The notes beneath the pieces were generated by a model. It ran no database searches and was not told the origin of the DNA. It was given only the letters and a program-made list of their open reading frames with translations. This document shows positions 11,250 to 34,638 of a DNA stretch of 64,000 nucleotides, in pieces. This DNA comes from Candidatus Hydrogenedentota bacterium (lineage in GTDB: Bacteria > Hydrogenedentota > Hydrogenedentia > Hydrogenedentales > JAEUWI01), in assembly GCA_034669905.1 (NCBI GenBank), contig JAXMOL010000032.1:1-64000 (forward strand), read 5' to 3'. Position numbers and translations under genes: made by a program. How positions within the stretch are numbered: the first letter of the stretch is position 1; each line of letters begins with the position of its first letter.

Positions 11250-11834
11250 ATGGACATAATTAAGCGACGATACTACGCCAGCGCGCGGCTTTTGGCACTC
11301 GTGATCGGTTCCGCTGTGCTCGTTGGTGTCGAAGCCTCCCCGGAACCGGAGAAGTCAAAGGTCCGGCTTGTGGCGGTGATCACCCACCTGGAAAACGAGG
11401 TGGACGCCGTTCCTCGAAGCGAGCTGGCTCGGATGTTCCTCAAACAGCAAACGGAATGGCCCAACGGGGAACGCTGTATCCCCATCGATCAGCGGGGTGA
11501 AAACCCCATTCGCAAGGTCTTTTCCCAGGTGGTATTGCGGCGAAGCCTTTACGACATAAAACGGTATTGGATGCAGGAAACCATGACCGGCAACGCGCGG
11601 CCTCCAGTGGCGCTGGAGAGTGCCTCCACCGTCAAAAAGTACGTCCAGAAACTCAAAGGAGCGGTTGCCTATATCTATCTGGACGAGCTGGATGATACGG
11701 TCCGTATTCTGGGCGTGACCGATGTCGAGGAACTCGCCCAGCCCTCCGGGGACAGGCCCGGAGCGAAGGGTTCGGAGGCGGCTCATATTCCGGATGACGA
11801 GGGGGTAGCATCTTCACCGGAAGTGCGTCCATGA
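11250..11834 (+). CDS. Small periplasmic binding-protein-like (PstS-type single domain) protein
   Basis: Signal peptide; AVITH..N, ELARMFL, W, VKKYV...GAVAYI pattern typical of the small PBP partners of such porins. Confidence 0.7.
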   Translation: MDIIKRRYYASARLLALVIGSAVLVGVEASPEPEKSKVRLVAVITHLENEVDAVPRSELARMFLKQQTEWPNGERCIPIDQRGENPIRKVFSQVVLRRSLYDIKRYWMQETMTGNARPPVALESASTVKKYVQKLKGAVAYIYLDELDDTVRILGVTDVEELAQPSGDRPGAKGSEAAHIPDDEGVASSPEVRP

Positions 11835-13837: not shown

Positions 13838-15221
13838 CCCGGTTTTGCTCGTAGACGATGAAGCCGCCTGGCTGCGAAGTTTCACCATGACCCTTCGTGC
13901 CGCGGGCATAAGCAACGTGCATACCTGTTCCGACAGCCGGGAAGCCGTGGCCCGCGCGGAAGAAATACACCCGGCACTCGTTATCCTGGACCTCACCATG
14001 CCCCATTTGTCGGGGGTGGAAGTCATGGCGCAGCTTGCGGCGGTGCGCCCCGAATTGCCGGTCGTCATGTTGACGGGAATGAACGATATTGAGACCGCCG
14101 TGGCCTGCATGAAGGAAGGGGCCTTCGACTTCTACGTCAAGACCACCGAAACGGAGCGGCTCGTAGGCGGCGTCAAACGCGCCCTGGAGCTGCAGCAGCT
14201 CCGCCACGAAAATACCCGCCTGCGGGACGGCATGCTCGACGATGACCTCAAGCACCCGGAGGCCTTTGGGGAAATCGTCTCCGTATCGCAAAAAATATGG
14301 GGCGTTTTTAAATACCTTGAAGTCGTCTCCCTGTCGCCTCTGGCCGTCTTGATCACGGGAGAAACCGGGGTGGGCAAGGAATTGTTTGCCCGGGCCGTGC
14401 ACCACGTCAGTGGGCGCACCGGCAACTTTGTGCCTGTGAATGCGGCGGGGCTGGATGAACAGGTATTCTCCGACACCCTCTTCGGCCATGTGAAGGGGGC
14501 CTTTACCGGCGCTGACGTGGCCCGCCCAGGGCTCATCGAGCAGGCCGCTGGCGGCACACTGTTCCTTGACGAAATCGGCGACCTGGATGGCGCGGCGCAG
14601 GTGAAACTCTTACGCCTGCTCCAGGAAGGGGAATATTACCCCCTGGGCTCCGATGTGGCGCGCAAGTCGGATGCCCGTGTCGTCGCCGCAACCAATTGCG
14701 ACCTGAAGACCCTCACCGAAAGTGGCGCTTTCCGGAAGGACTTGTACTACCGTCTGCATACCCACCGTGTCCAGGTACCGCCATTGCGAGAGCGGCGGGA
14801 GGACATCGGGCCCTTGCTGGAGTTCTTTCTTGATGAAGCCGCCCGATTACTCGACAAGAAACGCCCGACGGCACCCCGCGAACTGACTTCCCTGCTCAAG
14901 ACCTATCACTTTCCCGGGAACGTCCGAGAGTTGCGCTCCATGGTCATGGACGCGGTCACCCATCACGGCGGCGGCATGTTGTCCATGGCGCGGTTCAAGG
15001 AACACGTCCGCGACATGTCGCCCGAACAAGACCCGACGGCCCGCCCGCAAGTTGCCGTCACCTTTGGGGAGGTCCTGCCGACACTCAAGGAGAATGCCGA
15101 GTTGTTGGTGGAGGAAGCCCTGAGCCGCGCCGAAGGCAATCAGGCCATTGCCGCAGAAATGCTCGGCATATCACGGCAGGCTTTGAACAAGCGCTTGCGC
15201 CAGGCCGGGGAGAGTAGCTAA
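13812..15221 (+). CDS. Sigma54-dependent response regulator (NtrC family)
   Basis: REC (VDDE, LDLTMP), GETGVGKE, GAFTGA, FLDEIG, PGNVREL, Fis-type HTH. Confidence 0.95.
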   Translation: MNHSHYLSDPVLLVDDEAAWLRSFTMTLRAAGISNVHTCSDSREAVARAEEIHPALVILDLTMPHLSGVEVMAQLAAVRPELPVVMLTGMNDIETAVACMKEGAFDFYVKTTETERLVGGVKRALELQQLRHENTRLRDGMLDDDLKHPEAFGEIVSVSQKIWGVFKYLEVVSLSPLAVLITGETGVGKELFARAVHHVSGRTGNFVPVNAAGLDEQVFSDTLFGHVKGAFTGADVARPGLIEQAAGGTLFLDEIGDLDGAAQVKLLRLLQEGEYYPLGSDVARKSDARVVAATNCDLKTLTESGAFRKDLYYRLHTHRVQVPPLRERREDIGPLLEFFLDEAARLLDKKRPTAPRELTSLLKTYHFPGNVRELRSMVMDAVTHHGGGMLSMARFKEHVRDMSPEQDPTARPQVAVTFGEVLPTLKENAELLVEEALSRAEGNQAIAAEMLGISRQALNKRLRQAGESS

Positions 15222-15401: not shown

Positions 15402-15418
15402 TTGGCACACTTCTTTCT
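15402..15418 (+). promoter_or_regulatory. Putative sigma54 promoter of the mqn operon
   Basis: TTGGCACACTTCTTTCT matches YTGGCACR-N4-TTGCW except G to T in the -12 box. Confidence 0.5.
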
Positions 15419-15445: not shown

Positions 15446-16510
15446 ATGCTTCAAATCAAAATTAGACTCGACCGACCCACCGCCCTGCAGCACCTGCGGG
15501 AAACGCCCCTGCTTAGCCTGGGGCGCCTGGCCTTTGATGAAAAACGGGCGCGCTATGGAGACCGCGTGACCTACGTGCACAACCGACACGTCAACCCCAC
15601 CAATTTGTGTGTCTACTCCTGCAAGTTCTGCGACTATGCCGCGAAGAAAAATGACGCTCACGCCTATGAGTTGACGGAGGCCGATATTCTGAGCGACCTC
15701 CAGGATACCCACGTGGTGGAAGCCCACATCGTCGGCGGGCTCTGGCCGGGATGGCACTTCCACCGCTCCCTCGATCTGGTGCGCGCCATTCGTTCGGCAC
15801 GGCCGACGCTCTGGATCAAGGCCTTCACCGCCGTAGAAATCGCCTACTTCGCCCGCATGGAAAAGACCTCCACCCGACGCATTCTCGAGCAGATGCAGCA
15901 AGCGGGTGTAGACATGGTGCCGGGTGGTGGCGCTGAAATCCTGTGCGACCGAATTCACCAGGCCCTCTATAAAGATAAGATTGGACCGGCGGACTGGCTT
16001 CGTATTCATGAGGAAGCCCACGAAGTCGGTCTTCCCAGCAACGCCACCATGCTTTTCGGCCATATCGAAAGCGACGAAGAGATCGTCGACCACCTTTTGA
16101 AGTTGCGCGATCTTCAGGATCGTAGCGGTGGTTTTCAGAGTTTCATTCCCCTCGCCTACCTGCCCGGAGAAACCCGGCTGGTACCCCGCCCCGTAGCCGC
16201 ACCGCGCTCCCTGCGCATCATCGCCCTGTCCCGACTCGTCCTCGATAATTTCTCCCACGTCAAGGCCTACTGGCCGACCATCGGATTGGAAACCGCATCG
16301 GCGGCCTTGAGCTTTGGAGCCGACGACCTGGATGGCACCCTGGGAAAGGAGCGCATCATGCAGATGGCGGCTTCCGAATCGCCTGCCGCCCTGACCCGTC
16401 AGTTCATGGAACGCATTATTCGCGATGCCGGTCAGCTTCCCGTTACCCGTACGGGCCAATTCGACCTTTGTGGCGCCCACGAAGCAGGAGAAGCCCCATG
16501 CTGCGTCTAA
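15446..16510 (+). CDS. mqnE: Aminofutalosine synthase (radical SAM)
   Basis: NRHVNPTNLCVYSCKFC, IKAFTAVEI, PGGGAEI, NATMLFGHIE, HVKAYW, GADDLDGT. Confidence 0.9.
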   Translation: MLQIKIRLDRPTALQHLRETPLLSLGRLAFDEKRARYGDRVTYVHNRHVNPTNLCVYSCKFCDYAAKKNDAHAYELTEADILSDLQDTHVVEAHIVGGLWPGWHFHRSLDLVRAIRSARPTLWIKAFTAVEIAYFARMEKTSTRRILEQMQQAGVDMVPGGGAEILCDRIHQALYKDKIGPADWLRIHEEAHEVGLPSNATMLFGHIESDEEIVDHLLKLRDLQDRSGGFQSFIPLAYLPGETRLVPRPVAAPRSLRIIALSRLVLDNFSHVKAYWPTIGLETASAALSFGADDLDGTLGKERIMQMAASESPAALTRQFMERIIRDAGQLPVTRTGQFDLCGAHEAGEAPCCV

Positions 16511-17271
16511 GCGCAATCGATAACCTGTCAGGGAGCGGCTACCGACTTCGTGCGCCCGATTGCCACCACAGTCTGCTCTTTGAGACGCCCGCACGGATCC
16601 ATGAGCGTGTGGTCGCCCGTCAGTGCGAGGCGGCCTTGCTACCCGTCGCCAGCCTGCCCACCGTCAGCAACTATTTCGACGTGATTGGAAGCTATGGCAT
16701 CGCCTGCCGGGGTCCCGTACGAAGCGTCCAGCTCTTCAGCAGCAGTCCCCTTGGGTCCCTGTTGCGCCAGGGGCTGCCCATCTATGCCACCCCGAAATCC
16801 CGTTCCTCCATCGCGCTCTTTCGCATACTTTGCATACGGCAATTCGGCGTGGCACCCAAACTCACGTCTTCCTATCCCGGAGCCGCTGCCCACCTGCTGA
16901 TTGGCGACGGGGCCTTTGAATACGCCCAACGGAATCGGGACACACAACACGATAGGGACCTGAGCGGGTGGTGGTTCGAAGAAACGGGTCTCCCGTTCGT
17001 CTTCGCCCGCTGGGTCGTTTCCAGATCCCTGCCTCAACACCAGCGAGACGCCCTGTCCGACTGGCTCGACGCCTCCATCCAGTACGCCCAATCCCCTGAA
17101 GGCTTTGCTGCCCTGGTGCACTCGGAGGATGAGGCTACGGAGGGTGAACTCCGACGCAACTACTTCAAAAATCTGCGATATCACCTGACAGCGGAAGACC
17201 TCGCCGGCATGGAGAGGTTTCTTCAGCTCATGGAAGGAAACCGGTATGACCGTACCGCGCGTAGCGCCTGA
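16498..17271 (+). CDS. mqnA: Chorismate dehydratase (divergent)
   Basis: GPVRSVQLFS, SRSSIAL, LLIGD, DL..WW..TGLPFVFARW. Confidence 0.82.
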   Translation: MLRLSAIDNLSGSGYRLRAPDCHHSLLFETPARIHERVVARQCEAALLPVASLPTVSNYFDVIGSYGIACRGPVRSVQLFSSSPLGSLLRQGLPIYATPKSRSSIALFRILCIRQFGVAPKLTSSYPGAAAHLLIGDGAFEYAQRNRDTQHDRDLSGWWFEETGLPFVFARWVVSRSLPQHQRDALSDWLDASIQYAQSPEGFAALVHSEDEATEGELRRNYFKNLRYHLTAEDLAGMERFLQLMEGNRYDRTARSA

Positions 17272-18373
17272 AAAGGCCCTCAATCTCTATCGCCATGCTG
17301 CCCAGCGCGATCTCATGGAGCGGGCGAATGATATTCGCCAACAACTCCACCCGGGGAATGAGGTTACCTTCGTAATCGATACCAACCCCAACTACACCAA
17401 CGTGTGTACAACCGACTGCAATTTCTGCAGTTTCTATCGCAAGCCGGGCCACGACGACGCCTATGTGCGTACACCCGATGAACTCGGCCGCAATGCCGCC
17501 CAGGCCCAAGAACAAGGCGCGACGACGGTCTTGCTCCAGGGGGGGCACAATCCCGCCCTCGGCCTGTCTTACTACCTGGACGTTGTCGAGGCCTTGCAGC
17601 AGCACGCCCCAACTATGCACCTGCACCTCTTCTCTCCCTCGGAGATCCTGCACATTGCCGAGCAGGAGGCGATGAGTGCCCACGCCGTGCTCCAGCGGCT
17701 ATGGGATGCGGGGCTCCGCACGATGCCTGGAGGGGGCGCTGAGATACTGGTAGACACGGTGCGTCGTAAGTTGTCCCCCAAGAAGACCCGCAGCGACGCG
17801 TGGTTGGCCGTCATGGGCGAAGCCCATCGTATCGGCTTCAAGACCAGCGCCACCATGACCTATGGACATCTGGAGACCGATGAAGATATTATCGAACATC
17901 TCCTGCGGCTCCGCCAGTTACAGGACGAAACGGGTGGCTTCTACGCCTTCATCCCCTGGAGTTTCAAACCCGGCGCCTCCCCGCTCAGCCGCCTGGTTCC
18001 AGAAGCGGCACCGCCCAGCCAATATGTCCGCGTCATTGCCCTTGCCCGCATCTTCCTCGACAACGTGCCCCACATTCAGGCGTCCTGGTTCGGCGAAGGC
18101 TGGCGCGCCGGCCAACTGGCCCTCTATGCCGGTGCCGACGATTTTGGCGGCGTATTGCTGGAAGAAAATGTGCTTTTCCAGGCCCGTCATCAGGTCGCCA
18201 CCCAGCGGGATTCGGTGCTCAACATGATTCACGATGCCGGGTTCACGCCCGTTCAACGCAGCACCACCTATACCCACTTGAAACGTCATTTCATCCCCTC
18301 GTCTGTCACCCGCCCCTTCACGCAAACACGCGTCAACCCCCTGTTAACCCCCGCCTCGTCGACGGCGGTATAA
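17246..18373 (+). CDS. mqnC: Cyclic dehypoxanthinyl futalosine synthase (radical SAM)
   Basis: VTFVIDTNPNYTNVCTTDCNFC, LLQGGHNP, FIPWSFKP, HIQASW, GADDFGG..LEENV. Confidence 0.92.
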   Translation: MTVPRVAPEKALNLYRHAAQRDLMERANDIRQQLHPGNEVTFVIDTNPNYTNVCTTDCNFCSFYRKPGHDDAYVRTPDELGRNAAQAQEQGATTVLLQGGHNPALGLSYYLDVVEALQQHAPTMHLHLFSPSEILHIAEQEAMSAHAVLQRLWDAGLRTMPGGGAEILVDTVRRKLSPKKTRSDAWLAVMGEAHRIGFKTSATMTYGHLETDEDIIEHLLRLRQLQDETGGFYAFIPWSFKPGASPLSRLVPEAAPPSQYVRVIALARIFLDNVPHIQASWFGEGWRAGQLALYAGADDFGGVLLEENVLFQARHQVATQRDSVLNMIHDAGFTPVQRSTTYTHLKRHFIPSSVTRPFTQTRVNPLLTPASSTAV

Positions 18374-18385
18374 AGGAAGCCATCT

Positions 18386-19222
18386 ATGAATACCATTCGT
18401 ATTGGACACAGCCCCGACCCCGATGATGCCTTTATGTTCTATGGCTTCGCCTCGGAACAGGTCACGATTCCCGACCACCGCATCATCCATGTACTCCACG
18501 ATATACAAACATTGAATGAACTGGCCATGGGCGATGACCCCCTCGAAGTGACCGCCCTTTCTGTGCACGGCTATCTCCATCTGGCGGACCGCTATGAACT
18601 CCTCGAAGTGGGCACCAGCGCGGGGCGCTATTATGGCCCCCGACTCATCGCCAATGGCCCGGCATCGCTGGAAAGTCTGGCCGGGAAACCTGTTGCCCTG
18701 CCTGGCCCCTTCACCACCGCAACGCTCGTGGCCCGCACCCTCCTCCCCGGCATTCAAGAGGTCCATATGGATTTCACCCGGATCATGGATGCGGTCAAGT
18801 CCGGCGAAGTGGCCGCGGGTGTAATCATTCACGAAGGCCAACTCACCTACGCCGATGAGGGCTTCACCCTGCTCGCCGATTTTGGTGAGCTCTTTGGGGA
18901 ACGGCATGGCGGCTTGCCCCTCCCCCTCGGCGTCAATTGTATTCGCGCCAACCTGGGCCAGGCCCTGAAAACGACCGTGGCCAATGCCTATCGCCGTTCG
19001 GTGGAAATTGCGCTCAAACAACGGAGTGCCGCTGTGGACTATAGCCTCAATTACGGACGCGGCCTTTCAAAATCACTGGCGGACCGATTTGTCGGCATGT
19101 ATGTGAACGAAGACAGCCTTGCCTTCAATGACGAATTGCGACGGGCCATGGCGATTCTAAAAAACGAATACTGGCAAGGCTCCGAAGACCAGAAAAAAGC
19201 GCTGGCCGGCTCGGCGCGCTGA
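18386..19222 (+). CDS. mqnD: 1,4-dihydroxy-6-naphthoate synthase
   Basis: GHSPDPDDAFMFY, IIHEGQLTY, LPLPLG, GMYVN. Confidence 0.92.
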   Translation: MNTIRIGHSPDPDDAFMFYGFASEQVTIPDHRIIHVLHDIQTLNELAMGDDPLEVTALSVHGYLHLADRYELLEVGTSAGRYYGPRLIANGPASLESLAGKPVALPGPFTTATLVARTLLPGIQEVHMDFTRIMDAVKSGEVAAGVIIHEGQLTYADEGFTLLADFGELFGERHGGLPLPLGVNCIRANLGQALKTTVANAYRRSVEIALKQRSAAVDYSLNYGRGLSKSLADRFVGMYVNEDSLAFNDELRRAMAILKNEYWQGSEDQKKALAGSAR

Positions 19223-19287
19223 CGTCAAGCACATGAGCCACACTCTGTAACTCTCCTCTTTTTTAAAGGAATAAGGAACACAATCGT

Positions 19288-19932
19288 ATGTCACAACATG
19301 ATATCCCCACCGTGCTGGCCCACGACCGTTATACATCGAAACCCGCTCTAGACAATGGCTCCCCGGCCGCGGCAGATTCCGTAAAAACACCCCATGCGGA
19401 GCGCGAACGGATCATACAGGCGTGCCTCGACAGTAATTGCTTCCAGGCCGAGGTGCACTACGCGGAACGTAGTGGTCACCACACCATCGAACGGGCGGCC
19501 CGTCTCTATAAGAAACTGGACCGGGACGAAATGCGAAACGAACAACTCGTTCGTGTTGTCTTCCCGGCCGCGCCCCAACTCATCGAGCTGGGCTCCGTCA
19601 TGGCCATCACCTGCCTCTATGATCTGGAGAGGGCCTATAACATCTACGGCCACGTCATTTGTGCGGGCCCCGGTGTCAACGGCCTGCTGAAGGCCATCCA
19701 CGCCCCCATGGGCAGCGCCCATCCCCAACCGGGAGTCGCAGGCGAGCGGGCCATCATGCACTTTGTGGATTGGAAGCGCGCCGAATGGGACCGCTTTCTC
19801 ATCGACGAACTCGATCGGGGTCGTCAGGCGGCATCCGATCGCTATGTCCTGAATTTCTGGAAAGCGATGGACCGTATGTTTGGTGGCGGCCATCTCCTCA
19901 ATTGCCCAGACACCTACCACTGGAGAGGCTGA
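19288..19932 (+). CDS. Hypothetical cytoplasmic protein (214 aa)
   Basis: AAGGA SD, operonic position, coding-like composition; no family recognised. Confidence 0.7.
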   Translation: MSQHDIPTVLAHDRYTSKPALDNGSPAAADSVKTPHAERERIIQACLDSNCFQAEVHYAERSGHHTIERAARLYKKLDRDEMRNEQLVRVVFPAAPQLIELGSVMAITCLYDLERAYNIYGHVICAGPGVNGLLKAIHAPMGSAHPQPGVAGERAIMHFVDWKRAEWDRFLIDELDRGRQAASDRYVLNFWKAMDRMFGGGHLLNCPDTYHWRG

Positions 19933-19933
19933 G

Positions 19934-20707
19934 ATGACCCGTCTAAAAACGTGTGCGCTGATTGTATTGCTACTCACGCCCTTCGTTGCACCCCAGGCGG
20001 AAGAGGCCTACTCCGCACTCGATAGCTTTCGGGATGCGCGAAGGGCCTACGACGGGATCCGTATGGCGGCTATCCGCAATGCCCTCATGGAGCGCGCCTC
20101 GGAAGAGCGGGAGAACTACGAAGCCCAGATAGAAGCCGCCGAATGTCTTCGCATCACCGGGTCGGAGTTGCGTACCCAACGACAGGCCCAGCGTATTTCC
20201 GGTCAGGAGGCCAAGGAACTGAAGGCCCTGCAGGAAGATTGGTCCACCCAGGGAATGGCCTTTGCGGAACGCGCGTTGGCCCTGGCGACGACCGACGAGC
20301 GCATCGCCCGGACCCACCGCGTCTACGGGGAACTCTACGCCAACAGCATCACCGGGATGGTGGCTGGCCTCCGAAACGGGCCCAAAGCACGAAACCACAT
20401 GGATGAGGCGATGGCCCGAACGCCGAAGGACCCGGAGTGCATGCGGGCCATGGGCATCATGTACCTGAACAATCCCCCTTTCAATGGCGGTGATGTGGAG
20501 CGGGCCATTGAAACCTTCTCACGGTGCCACACCCTGGTGCCAGACAACGATAGTTATACGGTCTTGTTGACCCTGGCCTATAAGAAGCATAAGGACTGGA
20601 CGAAAGCCCTGGAGGCAGCAGAAACCACGCTGCGAATCAACGCGGCAAATCCCAACGCCGCAGCGCTGAAAGAAGCCATCATGGCGAAACTGGAGACGTC
20701 CGAATAA
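19934..20707 (+). CDS. Secreted TPR-repeat protein
   Basis: Signal peptide (..APQA-EE), helical TPR-like C-half (GIMYLNNPPFNGGD). Confidence 0.72.
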   Translation: MTRLKTCALIVLLLTPFVAPQAEEAYSALDSFRDARRAYDGIRMAAIRNALMERASEERENYEAQIEAAECLRITGSELRTQRQAQRISGQEAKELKALQEDWSTQGMAFAERALALATTDERIARTHRVYGELYANSITGMVAGLRNGPKARNHMDEAMARTPKDPECMRAMGIMYLNNPPFNGGDVERAIETFSRCHTLVPDNDSYTVLLTLAYKKHKDWTKALEAAETTLRINAANPNAAALKEAIMAKLETSE

Positions 20708-21675
20708 TGAAAGCGGTCTTTCGATGCATCGTGTTGGTGCTCTGTGGCACGGCGGTCTGCGCCCATTCCGAAGGCATGGAAAGGGCGGCCTATGTGGTCG
20801 AAGGCGCCGACGGGCTTCTACAGCGCTACGCCCCGGTGTTTGTGATTGAGCACCATGAAATGGCCTTCAACAAGATTGGAACGCCGGCAGCCAAGCGCAA
20901 CCACCGCGGTCGGGAAAAGGTATACGTGGACCCCAGTCATCCCACGGTCTACACCGAGGTCGAACACTTCGAAACAGCGCGCGGCTCCTATACCAATTTA
21001 ATTTATCGCATTCATTTCGAAGCCAATCCTTTCACCTGGGTTCCATTAAACGTTTCCGCCGGCAAAAACGTCGGTGCTATCTCCATCGTAACCCTGAATG
21101 CTTCCGACGAACCCGTCTGGTTGACCACAGTGCAAAGCTGCGGCTGTTACCATGCGATTATTCCCACGGACTACCTCCCGGAGGACGCCTATCCCGAGGG
21201 GTGGCGCAATAGCGAACTCGTGGTCTACGGTGAGCACCTCCCCGGCCAGCTCCCCATAAAGGCCCAGGCGGACGCGATGCCCCGTATCGTCATTCAGATC
21301 CGAAGTGGCTCCCACCGCTGTATGGGGGTATCGCTGGAGCCCCTCGAAGGGGTGGCTTCAGGCATGGCCCTCATACCTACACCGGCAGCCCCGATGGCGT
21401 CGCTGAAAGCCCTCCCCCTGGCCGATGGTTCGACCACTTCCTTTTACCACGCCCACGGCCATCGCAAGGGCCTGGTGAAGGGGGCCTACAAGCCCCTGGA
21501 GACCCTTCTCTTCGGGCTTTGGTCCTGGGATCACAATGTGGGACAGGACCGGGAATACGGGGCCAAGGAGCAGGTCGGCCGTCGATTTTATACCACCCTC
21601 TTCTTCGCCCGGAAGAAAGAGGCCGATATGTGGCACTATGCGCAGTATCTGGAACACAACGGATGGAAGCCGTAG
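20707..21675 (+). CDS. Secreted hypothetical protein (322 aa)
   Basis: Signal peptide; RYAPVF, NLIYRIHF, SCGCYH motifs; 1-bp overlap with the upstream stop. Confidence 0.7.
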   Translation: MKAVFRCIVLVLCGTAVCAHSEGMERAAYVVEGADGLLQRYAPVFVIEHHEMAFNKIGTPAAKRNHRGREKVYVDPSHPTVYTEVEHFETARGSYTNLIYRIHFEANPFTWVPLNVSAGKNVGAISIVTLNASDEPVWLTTVQSCGCYHAIIPTDYLPEDAYPEGWRNSELVVYGEHLPGQLPIKAQADAMPRIVIQIRSGSHRCMGVSLEPLEGVASGMALIPTPAAPMASLKALPLADGSTTSFYHAHGHRKGLVKGAYKPLETLLFGLWSWDHNVGQDREYGAKEQVGRRFYTTLFFARKKEADMWHYAQYLEHNGWKP

Positions 21676-21698
21676 GCCCTGACACAAAGGAAGTCCCC

Positions 21699-22451
21699 AT
21701 GACTCCACTATTCCTCAGCATCGCAACCCTCTGCGCCGGACTTACGGCAACCGGCATGGACCACGCCCCCTTGGACGCCCTCCTCAGTCACTATGTCGAG
21801 GACGGCCTGGTGGACTATGCCGCACTGAAAAAAGACCGGGCCGGGCTGGATGGCTACCTCGAAGAAGGAGGCCGCATAAGCCGCTCGACCTTTAATGCGT
21901 GGTCCAGGAACGACCAGCTCGCATTCCTGATTAATGTTTACAATGCCTCCACGCTCCAGTTGATTATTGACCACTTCCCCGTGGCCACTATCAAGTCCAT
22001 CGGCTCTCTTTTCAGCGGGCCCTGGGATAAGAAGTCTGTGCGGCTCTTCGGGAAGTCCATCTCCCTCAACACCCTGGAGCACAAGATTATCCGCAAGGAT
22101 TACAAAGAACCCCGCATACACTTTGCGCTGGTCTGCGCCGCCCTGGGCTGTCCTCCCCTTCGTGGAGAGGCCTACCAGGGCGACCGTCTCGACGCGCAAC
22201 TGGAAGAGCAGACGCAGCGCTTCCTCAATTCCGAAAATAAGAACTACCTGGACCGGGACAAGAAAACCCTCTGGCTATCCCCTATCTTCAAATGGTACCG
22301 CGAAGACTTTGAGGTCGCCGCGGACTCCCTTCCGGCCTTCGTGGCACCCTATATGCTCCCTACAGAAAATGCAGTAAACCTGAAAGACTTCGACATCTCC
22401 TTTACAGACTATGACTGGGCCCTGAACGACCGAAATAGCGGGAGTCTGTAA
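21699..22451 (+). CDS. DUF547-domain protein
   Basis: AFLINVYNA, EPRIHFALVCAALGCP, SPIFKWY..DF, YDWALN. Confidence 0.88.
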   Translation: MTPLFLSIATLCAGLTATGMDHAPLDALLSHYVEDGLVDYAALKKDRAGLDGYLEEGGRISRSTFNAWSRNDQLAFLINVYNASTLQLIIDHFPVATIKSIGSLFSGPWDKKSVRLFGKSISLNTLEHKIIRKDYKEPRIHFALVCAALGCPPLRGEAYQGDRLDAQLEEQTQRFLNSENKNYLDRDKKTLWLSPIFKWYREDFEVAADSLPAFVAPYMLPTENAVNLKDFDISFTDYDWALNDRNSGSL

Positions 22452-23957
22452 ATGCGTATCTTTCTGGCGGGCAACGTCCCGGAAGCCGTGCTCAGTCATC
22501 TTGACCGCCACCCCGGCGTACGGGCCACCTCCCCAATGACGGACACGGACGATACCAGGGTTGCGCATTCGTGGGACTGCTGTCTCGTGGGTGCCCCGGA
22601 GGACGCCGATGGACTGGATGATTTGCTGGAGGCCCTCCACAGGCAGCTGCCCCGGGTGCCACTCGGCTTCGTCGCAGGCCACGAACACCGGGACCACGCC
22701 CTGAAGGCACTTCGTTTCCGTGGGATTGACCGCATCATTCCTTCAGACATCGACGCTGCCGGCCTGGATAGTGCCCTGAAGGCGCTGGCGGAACACAACG
22801 TGCGGCTGACTCGACTGCAGGCTGCTCTCTCGGAGTGGGCGACGCCCACCATCTTTCTCACAGGTGCCACGGGTTTCCTGGGCGGGCACTTCCTACGCTA
22901 CCTCCTGCGCTGCACCTCAACCCACGTCATCGCACTCACCCGGCAGCGTGGAAACACGCCTTTCGATCAGCGCCTGACCCATCTGGACCGATTGCATCCC
23001 GGACGCATCGTGTGTGTCGAAGGAGACGTGGGCCTTCCGGGGCTCGGCTTGTCCGACGAGGCACACGCGCTGGTGGCGGCCCAACCCATCGAAGTCTGGC
23101 ATATGGCCGCCATTACCCGTTTTGAGGAGATGCTCCGCGAGGCCATTTTCAACGTCAACCTGGAGGGCACCCGCCATGTGGTGAACTTCTCCCGGAAGCT
23201 ACCGGACCTGAAGCACCTTCACCACGTCAGCACGGCCTATGTGGCTGGAAACGGTTACACCGCTGCGCCCGTTCCGGAAGCCCCCCTCGAACGTCCCGCC
23301 ACCTTCAAGAATCCCTACGAAGAATCCAAGTATGAGGCCGAACAGTGCGTGGTCCACTCTGACCTGCCTTGGACCATCTATCGGCCGAGTATCATCCTGG
23401 GGGAGAGTGTTTCCGGCCTCTGTGACGGGCAAACAGTCTACAATGTCGCCAAGATGCTCCGCCTCGCCCAAAAGGCCGGCGCGCGGCAAGTCGTGGCACA
23501 GCCCGAAACACCTCGGTTCCGTGTCGTGGTCGACCAGGGCGCGGCCAAGAACCTGATTCATGTGGATGATGTGGTGTGCCGAATGCTCCACATCGCGGCC
23601 CATCTGCCTGAGCGGGGAAGCTGCTTCCATATCACCCACGACGTCCCCACGCCCATGACCGACCTCATCGCAGTCATTGCGGCGCTGCTGGACATCCCGG
23701 AGTACGAATCCGTCCAGACCCTGGACGGCGCCCCCCTTTCGGCCGCGGAAGCCCTCCTTGAGCGTATCTCCGGGGTGTTCCGTCCCTACATGTTGAGCCG
23801 TGACGCCCACTTCGAAAGCGATCACGCTTATGTGACTTCCGGTCGTCTCCCCTTATGCCCCATGAACCGCCGTCGCCTTCATTTTCTCATGCAGTCTTTT
23901 TTGGAGCAGCACTACCCGTGCGAGGCCCCGTCACAACCCGTGTTGGCTTGCTCATGA
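22452..23957 (+). CDS. Thioester/acyl-CoA reductase-like extended SDR with N-terminal pseudo-receiver domain
   Basis: TGATGFLG, HVSTAYV, YEESK, YRPSII; first about 125 aa have a REC-like C-half pattern. Confidence 0.82.
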   Translation: MRIFLAGNVPEAVLSHLDRHPGVRATSPMTDTDDTRVAHSWDCCLVGAPEDADGLDDLLEALHRQLPRVPLGFVAGHEHRDHALKALRFRGIDRIIPSDIDAAGLDSALKALAEHNVRLTRLQAALSEWATPTIFLTGATGFLGGHFLRYLLRCTSTHVIALTRQRGNTPFDQRLTHLDRLHPGRIVCVEGDVGLPGLGLSDEAHALVAAQPIEVWHMAAITRFEEMLREAIFNVNLEGTRHVVNFSRKLPDLKHLHHVSTAYVAGNGYTAAPVPEAPLERPATFKNPYEESKYEAEQCVVHSDLPWTIYRPSIILGESVSGLCDGQTVYNVAKMLRLAQKAGARQVVAQPETPRFRVVVDQGAAKNLIHVDDVVCRMLHIAAHLPERGSCFHITHDVPTPMTDLIAVIAALLDIPEYESVQTLDGAPLSAAEALLERISGVFRPYMLSRDAHFESDHAYVTSGRLPLCPMNRRRLHFLMQSFLEQHYPCEAPSQPVLACS

Positions 23958-24346
23958 CCGAAAAGCGCTTATCCCCACACCGAACCCTATGCCGCGCCTA
24001 TTTTGAGGACTTCCTGCCCGGACTTACGGGCGAATTGCTCGTACCCGGTCTCCGTTCGCTCCATTGTACGCTCGGTGTTTCCATCATCGATGAAACGAAC
24101 GCTGCGTGGACTCTGGTCGTTTCGGAGGGGCGCCTGCTTTCCGTACGGCCCCAGGTCGATGACGCGCCCTGTATCTTTCAACTGGATTCCGGCACCCTCC
24201 TCGACGTCGCCGCAGGCGTGTTGGCCCCCGACAAAGCCTTCTTCGACCTTAGAATCGAAATCGAGGGCGACATGGCCCTCGGGCTTCAGTTCAGCACCGT
24301 GCTGGAACCCTTCTTCAAACAATACCCCTATGGGCGGGCAGAGTAG
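23954..24346 (+). CDS. SCP2 sterol/lipid-binding domain protein
   Basis: AWTLVV..G, LAPDKAFF..RIEIEGDMALGLQF. Confidence 0.8.
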   Translation: MTEKRLSPHRTLCRAYFEDFLPGLTGELLVPGLRSLHCTLGVSIIDETNAAWTLVVSEGRLLSVRPQVDDAPCIFQLDSGTLLDVAAGVLAPDKAFFDLRIEIEGDMALGLQFSTVLEPFFKQYPYGRAE

Positions 24347-26529
24347 TGACCGTGAACCCGATGAAAAACAGGGCCGCACGCATCGCGCTCGTGCTCACCG
24401 TCGCACTCGTATTGACCGCACCTTGGGGACTCCTCTGGCTCCATCTGGACAACCGTATTGAGCAGTGGGTGGCGGACGACGATGCCGCGGCTGGTTTTCG
24501 GAGCGATTTCGGAGAGGAGGATTTTCTGCTACTGGCCTATGCGGGGCCTTCCCTCTTTGAAATTGATGCCCTCGATCTACAGTTGGACGTGCTTGAGGAG
24601 GTGGAAGCACTTCCCCACGTCACCTCGGTCCAGAGTATTCCGTCCCTCTTTCGCGATCACTTTGGTGCGGAAAGCGCGGAGGAACTCGAAGAGGAAATCA
24701 CCACATCGCCCTTTTATGAAAAGGCCATCGTCTCTGTGGACCACCGGATGGGTGGCATGATTATTGGCAGTAGCAGCCCCTTTACGGCCTCAACGCGGCA
24801 GGCCTATGTCGAAGCGATACGCAGAGCCGCCGAACCCCTTCGCGCCGCCGGGTGGCAGGTACACCTCGTCGGACCAGGCGCGCTCAATGGAGCCCTCGAC
24901 AGTGCGTCGGAGTCGGAAAGCCGTCGCCTGCTCCCCCTTGCCGTACTGGTATCCACCGCCCTTCTTGGGGCAATACTCCGTTCGCTCAAAAAGGTACTGA
25001 TCGTCGGGCTCGTGTCGGCGCTGACCCTCGTCACTACCATGGGGCTCATGGGCTGGCTGGGTCTCACGATGAACATGGTCACCGTCGCGCTTCCGCCCGT
25101 GCTCTGGGTATTGTCGGCCGCCTACACGGTGCACCTGATTCGCTACTACGACGCATCCTTGGCAAACGGCGCGTCGGTCGAAAGGGCCGTTGCCCAGGCC
25201 CTGGCCATCGGAGTACGCCCATGTTTTCTGGCGGCGACCACGACCTGCCTCGGTTTTCTGGCTCTGCTCACGGCAGACATGGTGCCGGTTCGGGAATTGG
25301 GAATTGCGGCCGCCCTGGGAATCCCCGTGGCCTTCGTCGTTAGCATGGGGGTGACCCCACTGCTGCTCCAGTACCTGAGGCCCACCTCTCCGGACGCGGT
25401 AAGCACACCCCAATCGGTCGGCAAACTCCGCGCTTCCCATCACGCCAAGCCCATACTCCTGGCCGCGGTCGTGCTGGCCATGGCCTCCGCCTTTTTCACC
25501 ACGCGGGTTGACATCAAGTCCAACCCCCTTACGTTTCTACCGCCCGACGCCCCTATCGTTCGGGACTCTGCCATCGTCGCCGAACAGTTCACCGGACTCT
25601 ACCCCCTGGAAACGGTGCTCGAACTGAAAAGTCCGTGGCTCCGCCCCGAAAACTGGCCCGCCATTGAATTCCAGACCGAAACGCTCCAGGGCGCCACCGG
25701 CGTTGCCCGGGTACTCAGTCCGTTGGACTACCTCAAGAAGCTGAATCAGTGGAACGAGGGAGGTGGCACAGAAAACTACCGACTGCCCGCCGACCAGGCG
25801 ACGGCCGAAGCCTTGCTCCGTGATGTGCCCGAGGAACAACTGGGCCTGCTCACGTCGTTGGTTTCACCCGATGCCACCCGGGTCCGCCTTTCCGCCCTCG
25901 TAAACGTCATGGACGGCAAGGAATTGCTGGCCATTGTGGAGGCTTCCCGTGCCGCCCTTAGCCGGTCAGAAGACATCAAGGGGAGCTATCACACCGGCGT
26001 CGTGCTGCGATTGGTAGATGCGCAGTTCGCCTTGATTCGAACCCAGCTGAAAAGCCTGGCCATGGCCATTCTCATCATCTTCGGCTGCATGGCCATCGGG
26101 CTCCGCTCCCTTCGACTCTTGCTACTCGCCATTGCACCCAACCTCGCCCCCGTGCTGGCCCTCTTTGGCATCATGGGCTTGGTCGGCTTATCCCTCGATC
26201 CCGCCACCGTCATGGTGGCCGCTATGGTCCTGGGCATCGCCGTCGACGATACGATGCATCTCTTGCTGACCTGGCGGGAGCGATGGGTGAAGTCGGGGAA
26301 CGCGGCTATGGCACTGCAGGACGCCGTCGCCTTGAATGGCCCCGCTATGACCACGACCACGTGGGTGGCTTGCGCGGGATTTCTCGTTCTCGCCTTTTCC
26401 CATTTCGCGCCCATACGCTACTTCGGGCTCCTGTCCGCCGCGGCCATGGCAGTGGCACTCCTCGCGGACCTGTGGCTGTTGCCCGCCCTCATGCACCTGA
26501 GCAGTCTAAGAAAGGTCCGCGCCACGTGA
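24346..26529 (+). CDS. MMPL/RND-family exporter
   Basis: Two TM blocks with periplasmic loops, TTTCLGFLAL, LGIAVDDTMH. Confidence 0.88.
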   Translation: MTVNPMKNRAARIALVLTVALVLTAPWGLLWLHLDNRIEQWVADDDAAAGFRSDFGEEDFLLLAYAGPSLFEIDALDLQLDVLEEVEALPHVTSVQSIPSLFRDHFGAESAEELEEEITTSPFYEKAIVSVDHRMGGMIIGSSSPFTASTRQAYVEAIRRAAEPLRAAGWQVHLVGPGALNGALDSASESESRRLLPLAVLVSTALLGAILRSLKKVLIVGLVSALTLVTTMGLMGWLGLTMNMVTVALPPVLWVLSAAYTVHLIRYYDASLANGASVERAVAQALAIGVRPCFLAATTTCLGFLALLTADMVPVRELGIAAALGIPVAFVVSMGVTPLLLQYLRPTSPDAVSTPQSVGKLRASHHAKPILLAAVVLAMASAFFTTRVDIKSNPLTFLPPDAPIVRDSAIVAEQFTGLYPLETVLELKSPWLRPENWPAIEFQTETLQGATGVARVLSPLDYLKKLNQWNEGGGTENYRLPADQATAEALLRDVPEEQLGLLTSLVSPDATRVRLSALVNVMDGKELLAIVEASRAALSRSEDIKGSYHTGVVLRLVDAQFALIRTQLKSLAMAILIIFGCMAIGLRSLRLLLLAIAPNLAPVLALFGIMGLVGLSLDPATVMVAAMVLGIAVDDTMHLLLTWRERWVKSGNAAMALQDAVALNGPAMTTTTWVACAGFLVLAFSHFAPIRYFGLLSAAAMAVALLADLWLLPALMHLSSLRKVRAT

Positions 26530-27569
26530 CAGATTTCCAGCAACATGTGGAGGAAATTATCGCCCTCCACTTCGACCCCCGGTGGGGCACGCCCTATTGG
26601 CTTGAACGCGCGCCAAGCCTTCCCTTCAATCCCCAGAGGGATATATGCACGGTGGAAGACCTCCTCCGCTTCCCCCCCTTCCCCATGTACCTTCTCTCGA
26701 ATTGCCCCGTGGAGCATCTCATTCCGAAACGATTCCACGACGACCTTGCGAACTTCATTACCGCCGAAACGGGCGGGGCCACCGGCGTACCCAAGCGCAC
26801 GGCTTACCATAGCGATGACTTCACCGCGGCCTTTGTCGACCCCTTCGTCGCGGCAGCCACCCTTATGGATTTTCCCCGCAACCGGCATTGGCTCTTTATC
26901 GGGCCATCAGGTCCCCACATCATCGGCAAAGCGGCACGGGCCTGCGCCCACGCCCTCGGCTCCCTCGATCCCTTCTCCGTCGACTTTGACCCCCGTTGGG
27001 TACGCAAACTCCCTGAGGGCTCCCTGGGACGTACGCGCTACCTGGAGCATGTGCTGGAGCAGGCCCTGCAGGTATTGCATACCCAGCACATCGGTGTCCT
27101 ATTCAGCACGCCCCCCGTGCTTGAAGCCCTGGCAGGCCGACTGACAGAGGAACAACGAATGCACATCACGGGTATCCACCTCGGCGGTATGGCGGCGTCT
27201 GCGACCTTTTGGGAACAGCTTACGACCAACTGGTTTCCCAACGCCATCGCCCTTTCTGGCTATGGAAACAGCCTCGCCGGCGTATGTCCTCAAATAACAC
27301 CCTGCCTCGATGGGGCACCAGTCTATGTCCCTTTCGGCACTCGCATTGCCTTTGCTATGGAACGGAACGACGACGGCGCACCCGCCACGGTACGCTTTCA
27401 CCGCCTGGACCGGGCCGCTTTGCTCCCCCACGTGATAGAGGGCGATGAGGCTTTTGTCGACGTCGCCACGCCCCCCAAAGCACAGCAACTTGGTTTTCAT
27501 GCTACCGGGTTACGTAACCCGCAGCCGATCCAACGACAGCACGAAGTCCGGCAGGGAGGACTCTACTGA
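26526..27569 (+). CDS. EhpF-like ANL-superfamily adenylating enzyme
   Basis: HFDP..GTPYWLERA N-terminus, ETGGATGVPKR P-loop, GPSGPH, DFDPRWVRKL, GYGNS; GTGA overlap with the MMPL gene. Confidence 0.72.
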   Translation: MTDFQQHVEEIIALHFDPRWGTPYWLERAPSLPFNPQRDICTVEDLLRFPPFPMYLLSNCPVEHLIPKRFHDDLANFITAETGGATGVPKRTAYHSDDFTAAFVDPFVAAATLMDFPRNRHWLFIGPSGPHIIGKAARACAHALGSLDPFSVDFDPRWVRKLPEGSLGRTRYLEHVLEQALQVLHTQHIGVLFSTPPVLEALAGRLTEEQRMHITGIHLGGMAASATFWEQLTTNWFPNAIALSGYGNSLAGVCPQITPCLDGAPVYVPFGTRIAFAMERNDDGAPATVRFHRLDRAALLPHVIEGDEAFVDVATPPKAQQLGFHATGLRNPQPIQRQHEVRQGGLY

Positions 27570-27571
27570 CC

Positions 27572-28282
27572 ATGGTGGCACATGACTTTATCGAAGAGTC
27601 CGTAACCATACCCTGTGGCGACCGCAGCCTGGAAGGCATTTTGGCCTACCCGGAACGGGATAGCCCCAGACAGGGCGTGCTGCTCTTGTCACCCCACCCC
27701 CACATGGGTGGCCGGATGGACAACAACGTTATCGAACACCTCGCCCGACGCCTCGCCGAAGCGGGCAGCGTTACCCTCCGCTTCAACTACGGCGGTGTGG
27801 GCGGCAGTTCCCTGGAACTACCAGAAGACGTCACCACGTTTGACTATTGGGGACGCATCGAAGCCGAGCAAGACTATCGCGCCGTCCTGCCCGATGTAAT
27901 TGCCGCGCGGGATTTCCTCGTGCAGGCCCTTCCACCACGGACGCCAGTGGTCTATCTGGGCTACTCCTTCGGAAGTTGTATGGCGACGTTGTTGACGGGC
28001 GTGTCCGCCCCCCACGCGCTCATCGCCATCAGTCCCCCGGTGAGCCGGGTTCGCTTTGAAAATCTCGACGCGTGTACCATGCCCGTGTGTTTCGTGACCG
28101 GAGACCAGGATTTCGTATTCGACCCGGAGCGCTTCCGGGAGACCCGTGACGCTGTGCCCGGCCCCATAACCCATGTCCACCTGAACGGCTGCGACCACTT
28201 CTTTCGGAAAGAAGAAGGACGGGTCTATGATGTACTCCGCGCCTTTCTCAAAGAAAATATTCTCTTCGGAGCACCACTATGA
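27572..28282 (+). CDS. Alpha/beta hydrolase (COG2945-like)
   Basis: PHPHMGGRMDN, GYSFG nucleophile elbow, D, DHFF. Confidence 0.87.
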   Translation: MVAHDFIEESVTIPCGDRSLEGILAYPERDSPRQGVLLLSPHPHMGGRMDNNVIEHLARRLAEAGSVTLRFNYGGVGGSSLELPEDVTTFDYWGRIEAEQDYRAVLPDVIAARDFLVQALPPRTPVVYLGYSFGSCMATLLTGVSAPHALIAISPPVSRVRFENLDACTMPVCFVTGDQDFVFDPERFRETRDAVPGPITHVHLNGCDHFFRKEEGRVYDVLRAFLKENILFGAPL

Positions 28283-28977
28283 TCGGCCTGCTTCTCTGCC
28301 TCTTCAGCCTCGCCACAACGCCAACGGCCGAGCCTGTCGTCGAACTGGCAGAGGCCACCCGCACCTACGACCTCAGCAGGGCACAAGCCCTCGTGGCCTC
28401 TCTGAAACAAGCGACGGATAGCGACTCCGTGGCCCTCCGGGTGAAGGCACACTTGCTCGTGGCAGAGCTGCTGCGCCTGGAGTTTTCCTACCTTCCCGCG
28501 ACAGAAACCAAAACCCGGCGGGCCCTCGGGAAGCAGATCGATGCTGCCGCCGATGCCGGTCTCGCGGACCTCGATGGCCTGCCGGAAAGCTCAGAGAAAC
28601 ATCGCCTCAAGGCCGATCTGTTCGGCACAAAAATCCGCTCCACCTACCGTGCTGGAAAACTCAAGGGTCCATTGAACGCGGCCGTGGAGCGGGCCCTGCA
28701 GTTAGATCCGGAGAACGCGCGGGCCTATGTGACAAAAGCCAAGACCCTGCTCTTTCAGCCCTCCCCCACGGAAGGCGCACTTCAGGAAGCCCTTCGTCTT
28801 CTGAAGACAGCCCGCTCACGGGAGCCGACCCTCGAGCAAATCCGCCTCCTGCTGGCCTACGCCTACACACAAACAGGCGATACAGAAGCGGCCACCGAAT
28901 GCTGGCAGCAATGCCTGCAGGAAAACCCGGATTGTCTACCCGCTGCCCGTGAATTGAATTCAGTCCGACCTGATTGA
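28279..28977 (+). CDS. Secreted TPR-repeat protein
   Basis: Signal peptide; RALQLDPENARAY and C-terminal TPR motifs. Confidence 0.75.
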   Translation: MIGLLLCLFSLATTPTAEPVVELAEATRTYDLSRAQALVASLKQATDSDSVALRVKAHLLVAELLRLEFSYLPATETKTRRALGKQIDAAADAGLADLDGLPESSEKHRLKADLFGTKIRSTYRAGKLKGPLNAAVERALQLDPENARAYVTKAKTLLFQPSPTEGALQEALRLLKTARSREPTLEQIRLLLAYAYTQTGDTEAATECWQQCLQENPDCLPAARELNSVRPD

Positions 28978-29060: not shown

Positions 29061-29106
29061 AAAAAACAAAAAGGCCCAACGAGTCAACCGTTAACTCGTT
29101 GGGCCT
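29061..29106 (-). terminator. Intrinsic terminator (displaced original tRNA terminator; may also act on the + strand)
   Basis: AGGCCCAACGAGT-loop-ACTCGTTGGGCCT 13-bp stem preceded by an A-tract on +. Confidence 0.75.
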
Positions 29107-30948: not shown

Positions 30949-31390
30949 GAGAGGTGCCCCTCCTTCCGCAGATGCTATTACGCACTGCACGAAGACTCAA
31001 TATAACACCCTTTCCGTTTGGTCAATCAACGCCGATCACGACTTGACGGATGCCGTTTTGGCGATAGCCACTGGTGCACATCATCTCGAGACATTCGACG
31101 TGGTAAAATTAAACCGAAATTCGCTAGAGCAAGGGGGGCTTTCCATAGAAAACGTGCCTGGGGAGACTGCATATCACGATTTTATCCAGAAGCACTACGA
31201 CATTCAGAAGCTTGATATCCGCTCTTTAACTCTCTTATCTGAGGAAATAGTACGAGCAATTAGAGATGAACAATGTATCCGCTACACCAAAGGAGCGTTG
31301 AAAAAACTTCTGCGTGCGGGAATTGACGAAGGTAAGATTTCGTGTGATGATTTGGCACCTGACGTCAAAAAAATTTTTGTCGAGAGCTAG
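30893..31390 (+). CDS. Hypothetical protein, possible ADP-ribosyltransferase-fold toxin (cargo gene 3)
   Basis: N-terminal IRK, NTLSVW and HYDI motifs resemble the R-S-H layout of ART-like toxins (by eye). Confidence 0.55.
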   Translation: MSLLIRKIQLSKWMQNDIKRGAPPSADAITHCTKTQYNTLSVWSINADHDLTDAVLAIATGAHHLETFDVVKLNRNSLEQGGLSIENVPGETAYHDFIQKHYDIQKLDIRSLTLLSEEIVRAIRDEQCIRYTKGALKKLLRAGIDEGKISCDDLAPDVKKIFVES

Positions 31391-31419
31391 AGGCAATATT
31401 CTTTTACACGTCTACCCGC

Positions 31420-31740: not shown

Positions 31741-31754
31741 CTCGATTGCCTCCC

Positions 31755-34623: not shown

Positions 34624-34638
34624 TAAGTTTATTCGAGA

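Follow-up and report, generated by a model that had tools for sequence, protein, structure and literature searches.

Why does a bacterium that carries a complete classical (men) pathway to menaquinone also keep, within one compact operon, the early genes of the alternative futalosine pathway? The question is raised by a stretch of 64,000 nucleotides (nt) from Candidatus Hydrogenedentota bacterium (assembly GCA_034669905.1, contig JAXMOL010000032.1, positions 1 to 64,000 of the forward strand), which we refer to as the window. The listing of its open reading frames (ORFs) places 14 of them, all on the + strand, between positions 15446 and 28977, where they form a candidate co-oriented operon. 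An earlier note on this DNA, made from the sequence alone, had described the genes as co-oriented and mostly overlapping or abutting, and had proposed that they make and export a naphthoquinone other than menaquinone. The layout is as described, with spacings between successive genes of -13, -26, 12, 65, 1, -1, 23, 0, -4, -1, -4, 2 and -4 nt (thus from -26 to 65 nt), and family and structure searches (Pfam, NCBIfam, PDB) agree with the gene labels that the note had given. The genome of origin is G000 in our locus labels and is 95.7% complete. The cluster is real and conserved, and is undescribed in the literature searched. To judge by its genes, it likely makes and exports an undescribed and probably fat-soluble naphthoquinone, and the product is very probably related to naphthoate and distinct from menaquinone.

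The first four genes correspond to four of the five early enzymes of the futalosine pathway, in which MqnA, MqnE, MqnC and MqnD together with a nucleosidase yield 1,4-dihydroxy-6-naphthoate. The opening gene (15446..16510, + strand) encodes an aminofutalosine synthase-like radical SAM enzyme, for which the MqnE model TIGR03700 is the best model at a score under its cut-off (367 vs 434.55); its CxxxCxxC motif is intact and the tree places it among MqnE proteins. It is followed by a chorismate dehydratase-like mqnA (16498..17271, +; PF02621), best matched in the PDB by the chorismate dehydratase MqnA 7an7 (E 1e-11), and by mqnC (17246..18373, +), a cyclic dehypoxanthine futalosine (DHFL) synthase gene whose product exceeds the TIGR03699 cut-off (454.5 vs 428.1). 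The radical SAM motifs are intact in both MqnE and MqnC. MqnA is the most diverged of the four, retaining 49-65% identity within the genus as against 72-84% for MqnC. The last of the four, mqnD (18386..19222, +; PF02621), encodes a 1,4-dihydroxy-6-naphthoate synthase whose best PDB matches are the MqnD proteins AF1704 and TTHA1568 (1zbm and 2czl; E 1e-53 and 6e-42). The mqnE-A-C-D set named in the earlier note is therefore confirmed; the note had overlooked the absence of MqnB. Neither an MqnB nor an MTAN nucleosidase was found in the operon or elsewhere in the 95.7% complete G000, where TIGR03664 and TIGR01704 are without a match, so that one step toward naphthoate lacks an assigned enzyme. 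Alternative candidates in the genome are two PF01048 proteins, both of the purine nucleoside phosphorylase (PNP) type, and three PF01156 hydrolases over cut-off. The accessible portion of PMC3914697 adds nothing on gaps at MqnB. The MqnB step is likewise poorly detected in Gemmatimonadota, where our sample of 151 genomes includes 2 with MqnB over cut-off (one of them G172) and 22 with any match.

Analysis of the remainder of the genome identified a full menaquinone pathway of the other type. Contig C1 of G000 carries menF, a menD-menH fusion, menB, menA and menC, all over cut-off, together with a menE-like ligase gene, and a menG-like gene lies on contig C11. Three of the four UbiA-family genes in the genome are, by scan, menA, a decaprenyl-phosphate phosphoribosyltransferase and an eboC-like gene; the fourth is by eye a heme o synthase. 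The eboC-like prenyltransferase gene is followed by a phosphodiesterase-like ORF (G000:C25:63116-65382), possibly as part of an ebo operon. Among the late futalosine proteins, of which MqnP, MqnL and MqnM were named in PMC4746308, MqnP and MqnL were not found in G000; nor was UbiX, PF01977 (UbiD) has 0 matches, and the sole PF02441 match is by eye a CoaBC-like protein of 411 aa. The earlier note had remarked that no UbiA-type prenyltransferase or UbiD/X decarboxylase lies in the window, and indeed there is no UbiA-family gene on the contig and no UbiD gene was found in the genome. From its gene content, the complete classical men pathway supplies menaquinone in G000. With a full men set and no mqnP, mqnL or ubiX found, the mqn genes of the operon can therefore hardly serve menaquinone; they can apparently reach 1,4-dihydroxy-6-naphthoate but not menaquinone itself. 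The operon copies are the sole mqnE, mqnA, mqnC and mqnD genes of G000, a finding that the earlier note had been prepared to count against its own proposal; no second mqn set exists in this assembly, but the complete men set does. According to PMC13386864, the two menaquinone routes are almost mutually exclusive, co-occurring in 20 of 13,096 genomes under a quorum of six proteins. Since that survey demanded six futalosine proteins, a case such as G000 would presumably have gone uncounted.

In the order Hydrogenedentales, MqnD was found in 12 of 61 genomes, of which 34 were taken into further searches; the gene for the EhpF-like adenylating enzyme of the operon occurs in 12 of these 34, exactly the 12 that have MqnD. 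MenB is over cut-off in 31 of the 34 genomes, among them every cluster carrier but G030 (11 of 12), and MqnP (TIGR01475) is found in 0 of the 34. In the 88% complete genome G009 a 3-kb contig holds mqnE-A-C, and neither mqnD nor the ligase gene was found. The gene order of the operon is conserved across the genus. Three other genera and one Myxococcota genome have the block divided into divergent units that are still adjacent, one with mqnEACD and orf5 (the gene behind mqnD) and the other with SCP2, MMPL, ligase and hydrolase; the Myxococcota carriers G067 and G068 also lack MqnP. The cluster proteins of Hydrogenedentota, Myxococcota and three metagenome contigs form a single clade in the trees of both MqnC (17 rows, support 100/99) and MqnD (16 rows, 99/97), apart from the sampled housekeeping copies, which are a small and narrow set (9 MqnC and 4 MqnD). 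Seven duplicate loci and one further locus were omitted from the trees, and four MqnE-like rows were dropped from that of MqnC. The grouping with housekeeping orthologues that the earlier note had regarded as damaging to its proposal is thus not seen, and the co-conservation that it had hoped for is: mqn and ligase genes share one pattern of presence and absence and remain linked through rearrangements across phyla. In G061-G066 the tail of the cluster occurs without adjacent mqn genes, MqnC-like genes and MqnP lie elsewhere in the genome, and MenB is missing. This pattern fits a tail that draws on housekeeping naphthoate where it is present and that brings along mqn genes of its own in hosts of the men route.

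These distributions bear on the proposal that the operon is a back-up or condition-specific menaquinone route, in which MenA, or a prenyltransferase and a decarboxylase that have escaped recognition, would complement the mqn genes, with the downstream genes as an unrelated lipid-export unit. That the operon holds the sole mqn genes of G000 and that the assemblies are incomplete are in keeping with it, as is the frequent switching between the two menaquinone pathways stated in PMC13386864. We consider it very improbable in view of the absence of MqnP from all 34 genomes, the lack of any UbiD found in G000, and the joint presence or absence of mqn and ligase genes together with their lasting linkage. 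Together with the complete men set, the same observations led us to reject a housekeeping menaquinone role. Support for a product other than menaquinone, as the earlier note had claimed, comes from the full men pathway, the separate Mqn clade and the co-conserved downstream genes.

What, then, becomes of the naphthoate? The ORF at 26526..27569 (+) encodes the EhpF-like adenylating enzyme, which matches EhpF in the PDB (3hgu and 3l2k, E 7e-27; by profile, E 2.5e-45). Homology is full-length, with an alignment over 310 profile positions, and the P-loop ETGGxTGxPK and the GYGN motif are kept. Enzymes of the GriC/EhpF type adenylate aromatic acids. A tyrosine is the C-terminal residue in 95 of 95 closed ORFs of this ligase, and the name ThnN was seen as a database label among the ligase matches; ThnO is named as the partner of ThnN in thienamycin biosynthesis. 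G063 and G065 have second ligase paralogues that sit apart in the tree on a long branch, one of them followed by an ORF that by eye resembles an aldehyde dehydrogenase. An aldehyde dehydrogenase domain is found in 0 of the 14 operon genes (Pfam, NCBIfam).

Three further proteins may act on the activated acid. The first (22452..23957, +; PF07993, with TIGR01746 below cut-off) is a thioester-reductase (R-domain)-like short-chain dehydrogenase/reductase (SDR) with an N-terminal extension of about 130 aa; its TGxxGxxG and YxxxK motifs are invariant, and its best PDB match is the R domain of MxaA. The second is an SCP2 lipid carrier (23954..24346, +; PF02036), which elsewhere is often fused to the SDR. 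The third is an alpha/beta hydrolase of the Atu1826/XC6422 type (27572..28282, +; PDB 3trd and 2i3d), a candidate acyltransferase or thioesterase whose triad Ser132-Asp180-His209 is intact and invariant in a 54-row alignment. Proteins with SCP2 and PF07993 domains typically handle fatty acyl-CoA.

Metagenomes were scanned with the ligase alignment, which gave 232 relatives, of which the best 80 were kept. An mqn gene lies beside the EhpF-clade gene in 29 of these best 80 loci, and in 20 if the count is limited to the 31 that reach at least 10 kb, in several arrangements and with two MqnD clades. These 31 loci and 15 genome loci make up a set of 46 long loci; it was chosen by similarity and includes near-duplicates, so its counts describe and do not test. 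Within it the hydrolase and SCP2 each occur in 43 loci, the R domain in 34, mqn genes in 31, the exported protein sec2 in 29, MMPL in 26, a class-III aminotransferase in 21, orf5 in 19, a U32 protein in 12 and DUF547 in 8. The hydrolase and SCP2 are core components and the reductase domain is accessory. A close cluster-type SDR homologue was not found in G030, G036 or G067, and the homologues in G011 and G022 are unlinked. Cytochromes and YceI-family proteins recur beside related clusters. Genes for a U32 (UbiU/TrhP-like) protein, an aminotransferase and multiheme cytochromes extend the clusters in L153, L164, L166, L143 and L167, and in three of these clusters there are cytochrome b subunits as well. 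A separate MqnD clade, 32-39% identical to the MqnD of the window, was observed inside EhpF-like clusters; in most of them its gene comes immediately after that of the ligase, with the class-III aminotransferase gene next (L103, L104, L114, L117, L119-L121, L124-L127, L130, L131, L134, L136-L138, L159 and L161).

The earlier note had suggested that the naphthoate carboxyl is activated and then reduced or conjugated. Activation is still predicted, given the EhpF match, and reduction as the shared step is weakened by the occurrence of the R domain in 34 of the 46 long loci. Since the hydrolase and SCP2 are each found in 43, conjugation is likelier than reduction as the shared step. Our best explanation, which we hold tentatively and at somewhat less than an even chance, is that naphthoate made by the operon is activated and coupled to a hydrophobic acceptor and that the resulting naphthoquinone conjugate is exported. 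In such a scheme MqnA, MqnE, MqnC and MqnD would make 1,4-dihydroxy-6-naphthoate, which orf5 may modify or channel directly after MqnD. The EhpF-like enzyme would then adenylate the carboxyl in place of menaquinone formation, and the naphthoyl-AMP might be passed, perhaps via the C-terminal tyrosine or the hydrolase serine, to an SCP2-bound lipid alcohol or amine. Either the supply of this alcohol or reduction of the naphthoyl group could be the task of the accessory reductase. The MMPL protein would export the conjugate and the exported proteins would receive it, the product most likely mediating redox reactions within the cell envelope or outside it, a role that the cytochromes and YceI proteins near related clusters suggest. 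Acyl transfer through the hydrolase is put forward from its intact triad. The terminal tyrosine as acyl acceptor is a guess by analogy, for which LuxE serves as the analogue of a terminal-residue acyl acceptor.

Several observations weigh against this explanation. The nucleosidase gap described above is one, and the operon has no acyl carrier protein (ACP). Neither mqn genes nor orf5 occur in 9 of the 46 long loci, and MMPL is in only 26. No cytochrome lies beside the operon in G000, and the related carrier genomes are not independent of each other. The partner of GriC is a reductase and not a transferase (PMC10179220), and that of EhpF is EhpG, of the aldehyde-dehydrogenase family (PMC11278526).

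The last point leads to a reductive route, in which the EhpF-like enzyme and the R-domain SDR would act as a two-protein carboxylate reductase, converting naphthoate to an aldehyde or alcohol (or an amine, with the aminotransferase), and a small free naphthoquinone would be exported as a shuttle, signal or antibiotic. It is modelled on GriC, which according to PMC10179220 forms an acyl-AMP that GriD reduces. The match of the SDR to MxaA, the presence of the R domain in 17 of the 21 long loci with a class-III aminotransferase, and the conservation of the SDR in the host genus all fit this route. The R domain is nevertheless missing from 12 of the 46 long loci and no cluster-type copy was found in the three genomes named above; moreover, the two most conserved partners, SCP2 and the hydrolase, are left unexplained. 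We regard the reductive route as conceivable but rather unlikely, and the reductase as a core step is weakened on the same grounds.

It is also conceivable, though improbable, that the ligase acts on an acid other than naphthoate, through a branch before or at MqnD or from outside the pathway. Cyclic DHFL, 3-(1-carboxyvinyloxy)benzoate or a fatty acid would be activated, and naphthoate would be only an acceptor or side product. The absence of MqnB and the divergence of MqnA are compatible with this, as are the fatty acyl-CoA associations of SCP2 and PF07993 and the occurrence of mqnA-mqnE-mqnC without adjacent mqnD in four loci (L133, L143, L163 and L167). Against it, mqnD is the mqn gene most often beside the ligase (22 of the best 80 of the 232 loci), such clusters have an MqnD clade of their own, and the substrates of EhpF-type enzymes are aromatic acids. 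Conjugation of activated naphthoate is retained as the preferred explanation.

The protein placed directly after MqnD in that explanation is encoded by orf5 (19288..19932, +), a small cytoplasmic family with 76 homologues. It has no Pfam or NCBIfam match, and its alignment has the invariant residues E55, K75, R89, D112, N118, Y120, H122, K163, D195 and R196. The structural model reaches a pLDDT of 87.7; fold searches returned no Foldseek match at E 0.001 or better and a best VIA Z of 5.1, which neither shows nor excludes a new fold. As regards a PNP_UDP_1 sequence or fold, Pfam gives no match and no fold match of any kind is listed above Z 5.1. A GNAT/FeeM relationship is a lead only (Atlas feature scores 0.83-0.87), GNAT not being among the listed fold matches. 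An artefact antisense to a minus-strand gene was rejected, given the conserved alignment, the quality of the model and in-frame fusions to MqnD and ArsS. The family is tied to naphthoate metabolism because orf5 is fused behind cluster-type MqnD in two proteins, mqnP or mqnL lies within about 5 kb of it in 25 of 28 Gemmatimonadota and Acidobacteriota loci, and MqnC-like genes occur in 19 of 19 outside genomes reached through orf5. Within the 46 long loci, 18 have orf5 only, 20 the aminotransferase only, 1 both and 7 neither, and the two alternate at several places in the ligase tree.

The absence of MqnB and MTAN from G000 had initially led us to take orf5 for the missing nucleosidase, as a non-homologous stand-in. 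MqnB is over cut-off in none of the 34 genomes, most of which have orf5; in L088 the spot beside mqnD that orf5 otherwise occupies is held by mqnB; and in Phycisphaerae the adenosylating radical SAM protein ArsS is joined with a tandem orf5 in one fusion. Yet only 3 of 151 Gemmatimonadota genomes were found to have orf5, and it co-occurs with a divergent mqnB-mqnD pair in G153, two observations that weaken it as a general MqnB replacement. It also sits with the late genes mqnP and mqnL and alternates with the aminotransferase, and G000 has the other nucleosidase candidates listed above. A nucleosidase role is thus doubtful, and a protein that tailors or channels naphthoate after MqnD is more likely.

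Other settings of orf5 were recorded. In the Phycisphaerae loci L075 (9356-11593), L076, L077, L078 and L151, an ArsS-type radical SAM domain (TIGR04167 over cut-off) forms one protein with a tandem pair of orf5 domains. Only this fusion was observed in L078; elsewhere it is the first member of a cluster that also has SDR::SCP2, the hydrolase, the EhpF-like ligase, sec2 and a GT2 glycosyltransferase, and a cytochrome c precedes the cluster. In Gemmatimonadota and Acidobacteriota (L046-L065, L067-L074, L194 and L196) orf5 is flanked by mqnP and a long-form mqnL (about 590 aa) and in most cases lies on the opposite strand. Some of those genomes have this arrangement as a second mqnL-mqnP set, followed by a phytoene-synthase-family gene, which could point to a modified menaquinone. 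The tree did not support a reading of orf5 as the marker of a specialised MqnP; orf5 does travel with a long-form UbiD clade.

The remaining operon genes encode the exporter and exported proteins. The MMPL/RND exporter (24346..26529, +) matches PF03176. The three secreted proteins named in the earlier note, at 19934, 20707 and 21699, do have an N-terminal hydrophobic stretch, and a fourth at 28279 has one likewise; these calls come from a simple hydropathy test of the N-terminus and not from a signal-peptide predictor. Two of the four (19934..20707 and 28279..28977, both +) are TPR proteins by Pfam. Another, sec2 (20707..21675, +), has an invariant CGCxH...H pattern in a 26-row alignment and no Pfam match at E 0.01, that is, no NPP1 sequence signature. 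Its predicted structure is an NLP/NPP1-like beta-sandwich (VIA Z 9.5 and 9.2; root-mean-square deviation 3.9 over 175 residues against 3st1, at 11% identity; Foldseek E 4.5e-3), the next unrelated VIA match having a Z of 3.3. On this model sec2 shares only the fold with NLP/NPP1 proteins, and it could possibly be a metal- or lipid-binding acceptor of the exported product. A second sec2 paralogue lies between mqnC and mqnD in G003 (L022:8775-9764). The remaining one of the four, an accessory exported DUF547 protein (21699..22451, +; PF04784), has two unlinked paralogues in G000. A link through DUF547 to arsenosugar synthesis was rejected: the ArsS-like gene and another DUF547 gene of G000 lie unlinked on contig C61. 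The region concerned (G000:C61:6149-15231), with methyltransferase-like, ABC transporter, ArsS-like radical SAM, DUF547 fusion and mercuric-reductase-like genes (labels partly by eye), is a probable arsenosugar-type cluster.

Upstream of the operon lies a likely regulatory sensing unit. It comprises a porin-like outer-membrane protein (9845..11197, +; PF07396), a small exported, possibly substrate-binding protein without a Pfam match (11250..11834, +), a Cache-HAMP histidine kinase found by domain search (11831..13837, +) and an NtrC-type sigma-54 response regulator (13812..15221, +, start inferred; PF00072, PF00158 and HTH_8). The first two keep their upstream position in G003 and G005, and the response regulator, the likely activator of the operon, is adjacent and 73-89% identical in G003, G004 and G005. 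A sigma-54-type -24/-12 motif, TGGCAC-N5-TTTC, stands upstream of mqnE (15403..15417, +) and precedes mqnE in six genomes including G000; its TTGC form precedes SCP2 in the rearranged G011 and G022. Such motifs number 74 across G000. A 16-bp hairpin (29072..29106), scored as terminator-like on the - strand, closes the operon, and a single sigma-54 transcript could span it. Directly 3' begins a lower-GC island (29457-35878, 47-55%) next to a tRNA-Arg(CCG) gene (35802-35878); by eye, two of its minus-strand ORFs resemble an integrase (34639-35694) and a replication protein (31954-33336).

The host lineage has retained, probably for a different end, the early genes of the futalosine route next to a complete men pathway, and mqn genes alone are no marker of futalosine-derived menaquinone. 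The operon is compact and self-contained and therefore expressible in one piece. Its expression would bring to light a naphthoquinone metabolite or redox carrier that is new and common to several mostly uncultured phyla, and would show a reductase-independent role for EhpF-type ligases and functions for the uncharacterised orf5 and sec2 families. More speculatively, and with less confidence than the coupling scheme itself commands, the products of these clusters may be a class of naphthoquinones that is widespread and undescribed, conjugated to lipid through the 6-carboxyl of the futalosine product and lacking a prenyl chain; they would be envelope-exported redox carriers made by an EhpF-type ligase, a serine hydrolase and SCP2 without nonribosomal peptide synthetase (NRPS), polyketide synthase (PKS) or carrier protein; orf5 would be an enzyme family not seen before, unmatched in fold, whose members in some Gemmatimonadota tailor the precursors of menaquinone as well.

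Comparison with known systems serves to delimit what is new. The operon shares four early enzymes, motifs intact, with the futalosine menaquinone pathway; it differs in that no MqnB, MqnP, MqnL or UbiX was found, in its patchy spread, in the full men pathway alongside and in the sigma-54-type motif upstream. In myxochelin biosynthesis MxcG with MxcL is an example of R-domain release. The operon resembles this and the myxalamid system (MxaA) in its R-domain-type reductase, and related clusters add a class-III aminotransferase; its own R domain is stand-alone (SCP2-fused elsewhere), accessory, and accompanied by no NRPS or carrier domain. With EhpF/EhpG of D-alanylgriseoluteic acid, GriC/GriD of grixazone and ThnN/ThnO of thienamycin biosynthesis it shares the same atypical short adenylating family, EhpF being termed an atypical ANL adenylating enzyme in a title in the reference list of PMC3175449, and activation of an aromatic acid is the likely chemistry. 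In those systems the partner is aldehyde-dehydrogenase-like (a table in PMC11278526 places ehpG, of that family, next to the EhpF gene), whereas in the operon no such partner is present and the constant partners are the serine hydrolase and SCP2. The literature searched, which does not cover most subscription journals, contained no paper on this cluster. The closest precedent is the PM100117/PM100118 gon cluster of Streptomyces caniferus, for which PMC4763440 describes dedicated mqnA, mqnC, mqnE and mqnD genes without mqnB that supply 1,4-dihydroxy-6-naphthoate to a non-menaquinone naphthoquinone, with activation by an AMP ligase proposed. Recruitment of these four genes without mqnB for a naphthoquinone unit is therefore already known, in an ACP/PKS-linked form. 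According to the same paper, the gon unit is loaded on an ACP and PKS and ends on a glycosylated macrolide, in a host with further mqn copies. The operon differs in having no PKS, ACP or methyltransferase, and neither a CAL-ACP ligase nor KSIII nor a type I PKS is found in its 14 genes or among the recurrent neighbours of related loci. It has instead an EhpF-type ligase, SCP2, MMPL, hydrolase and orf5, and what is new here is this self-contained form in a host of the men pathway, with its accessory reductase and orf5.

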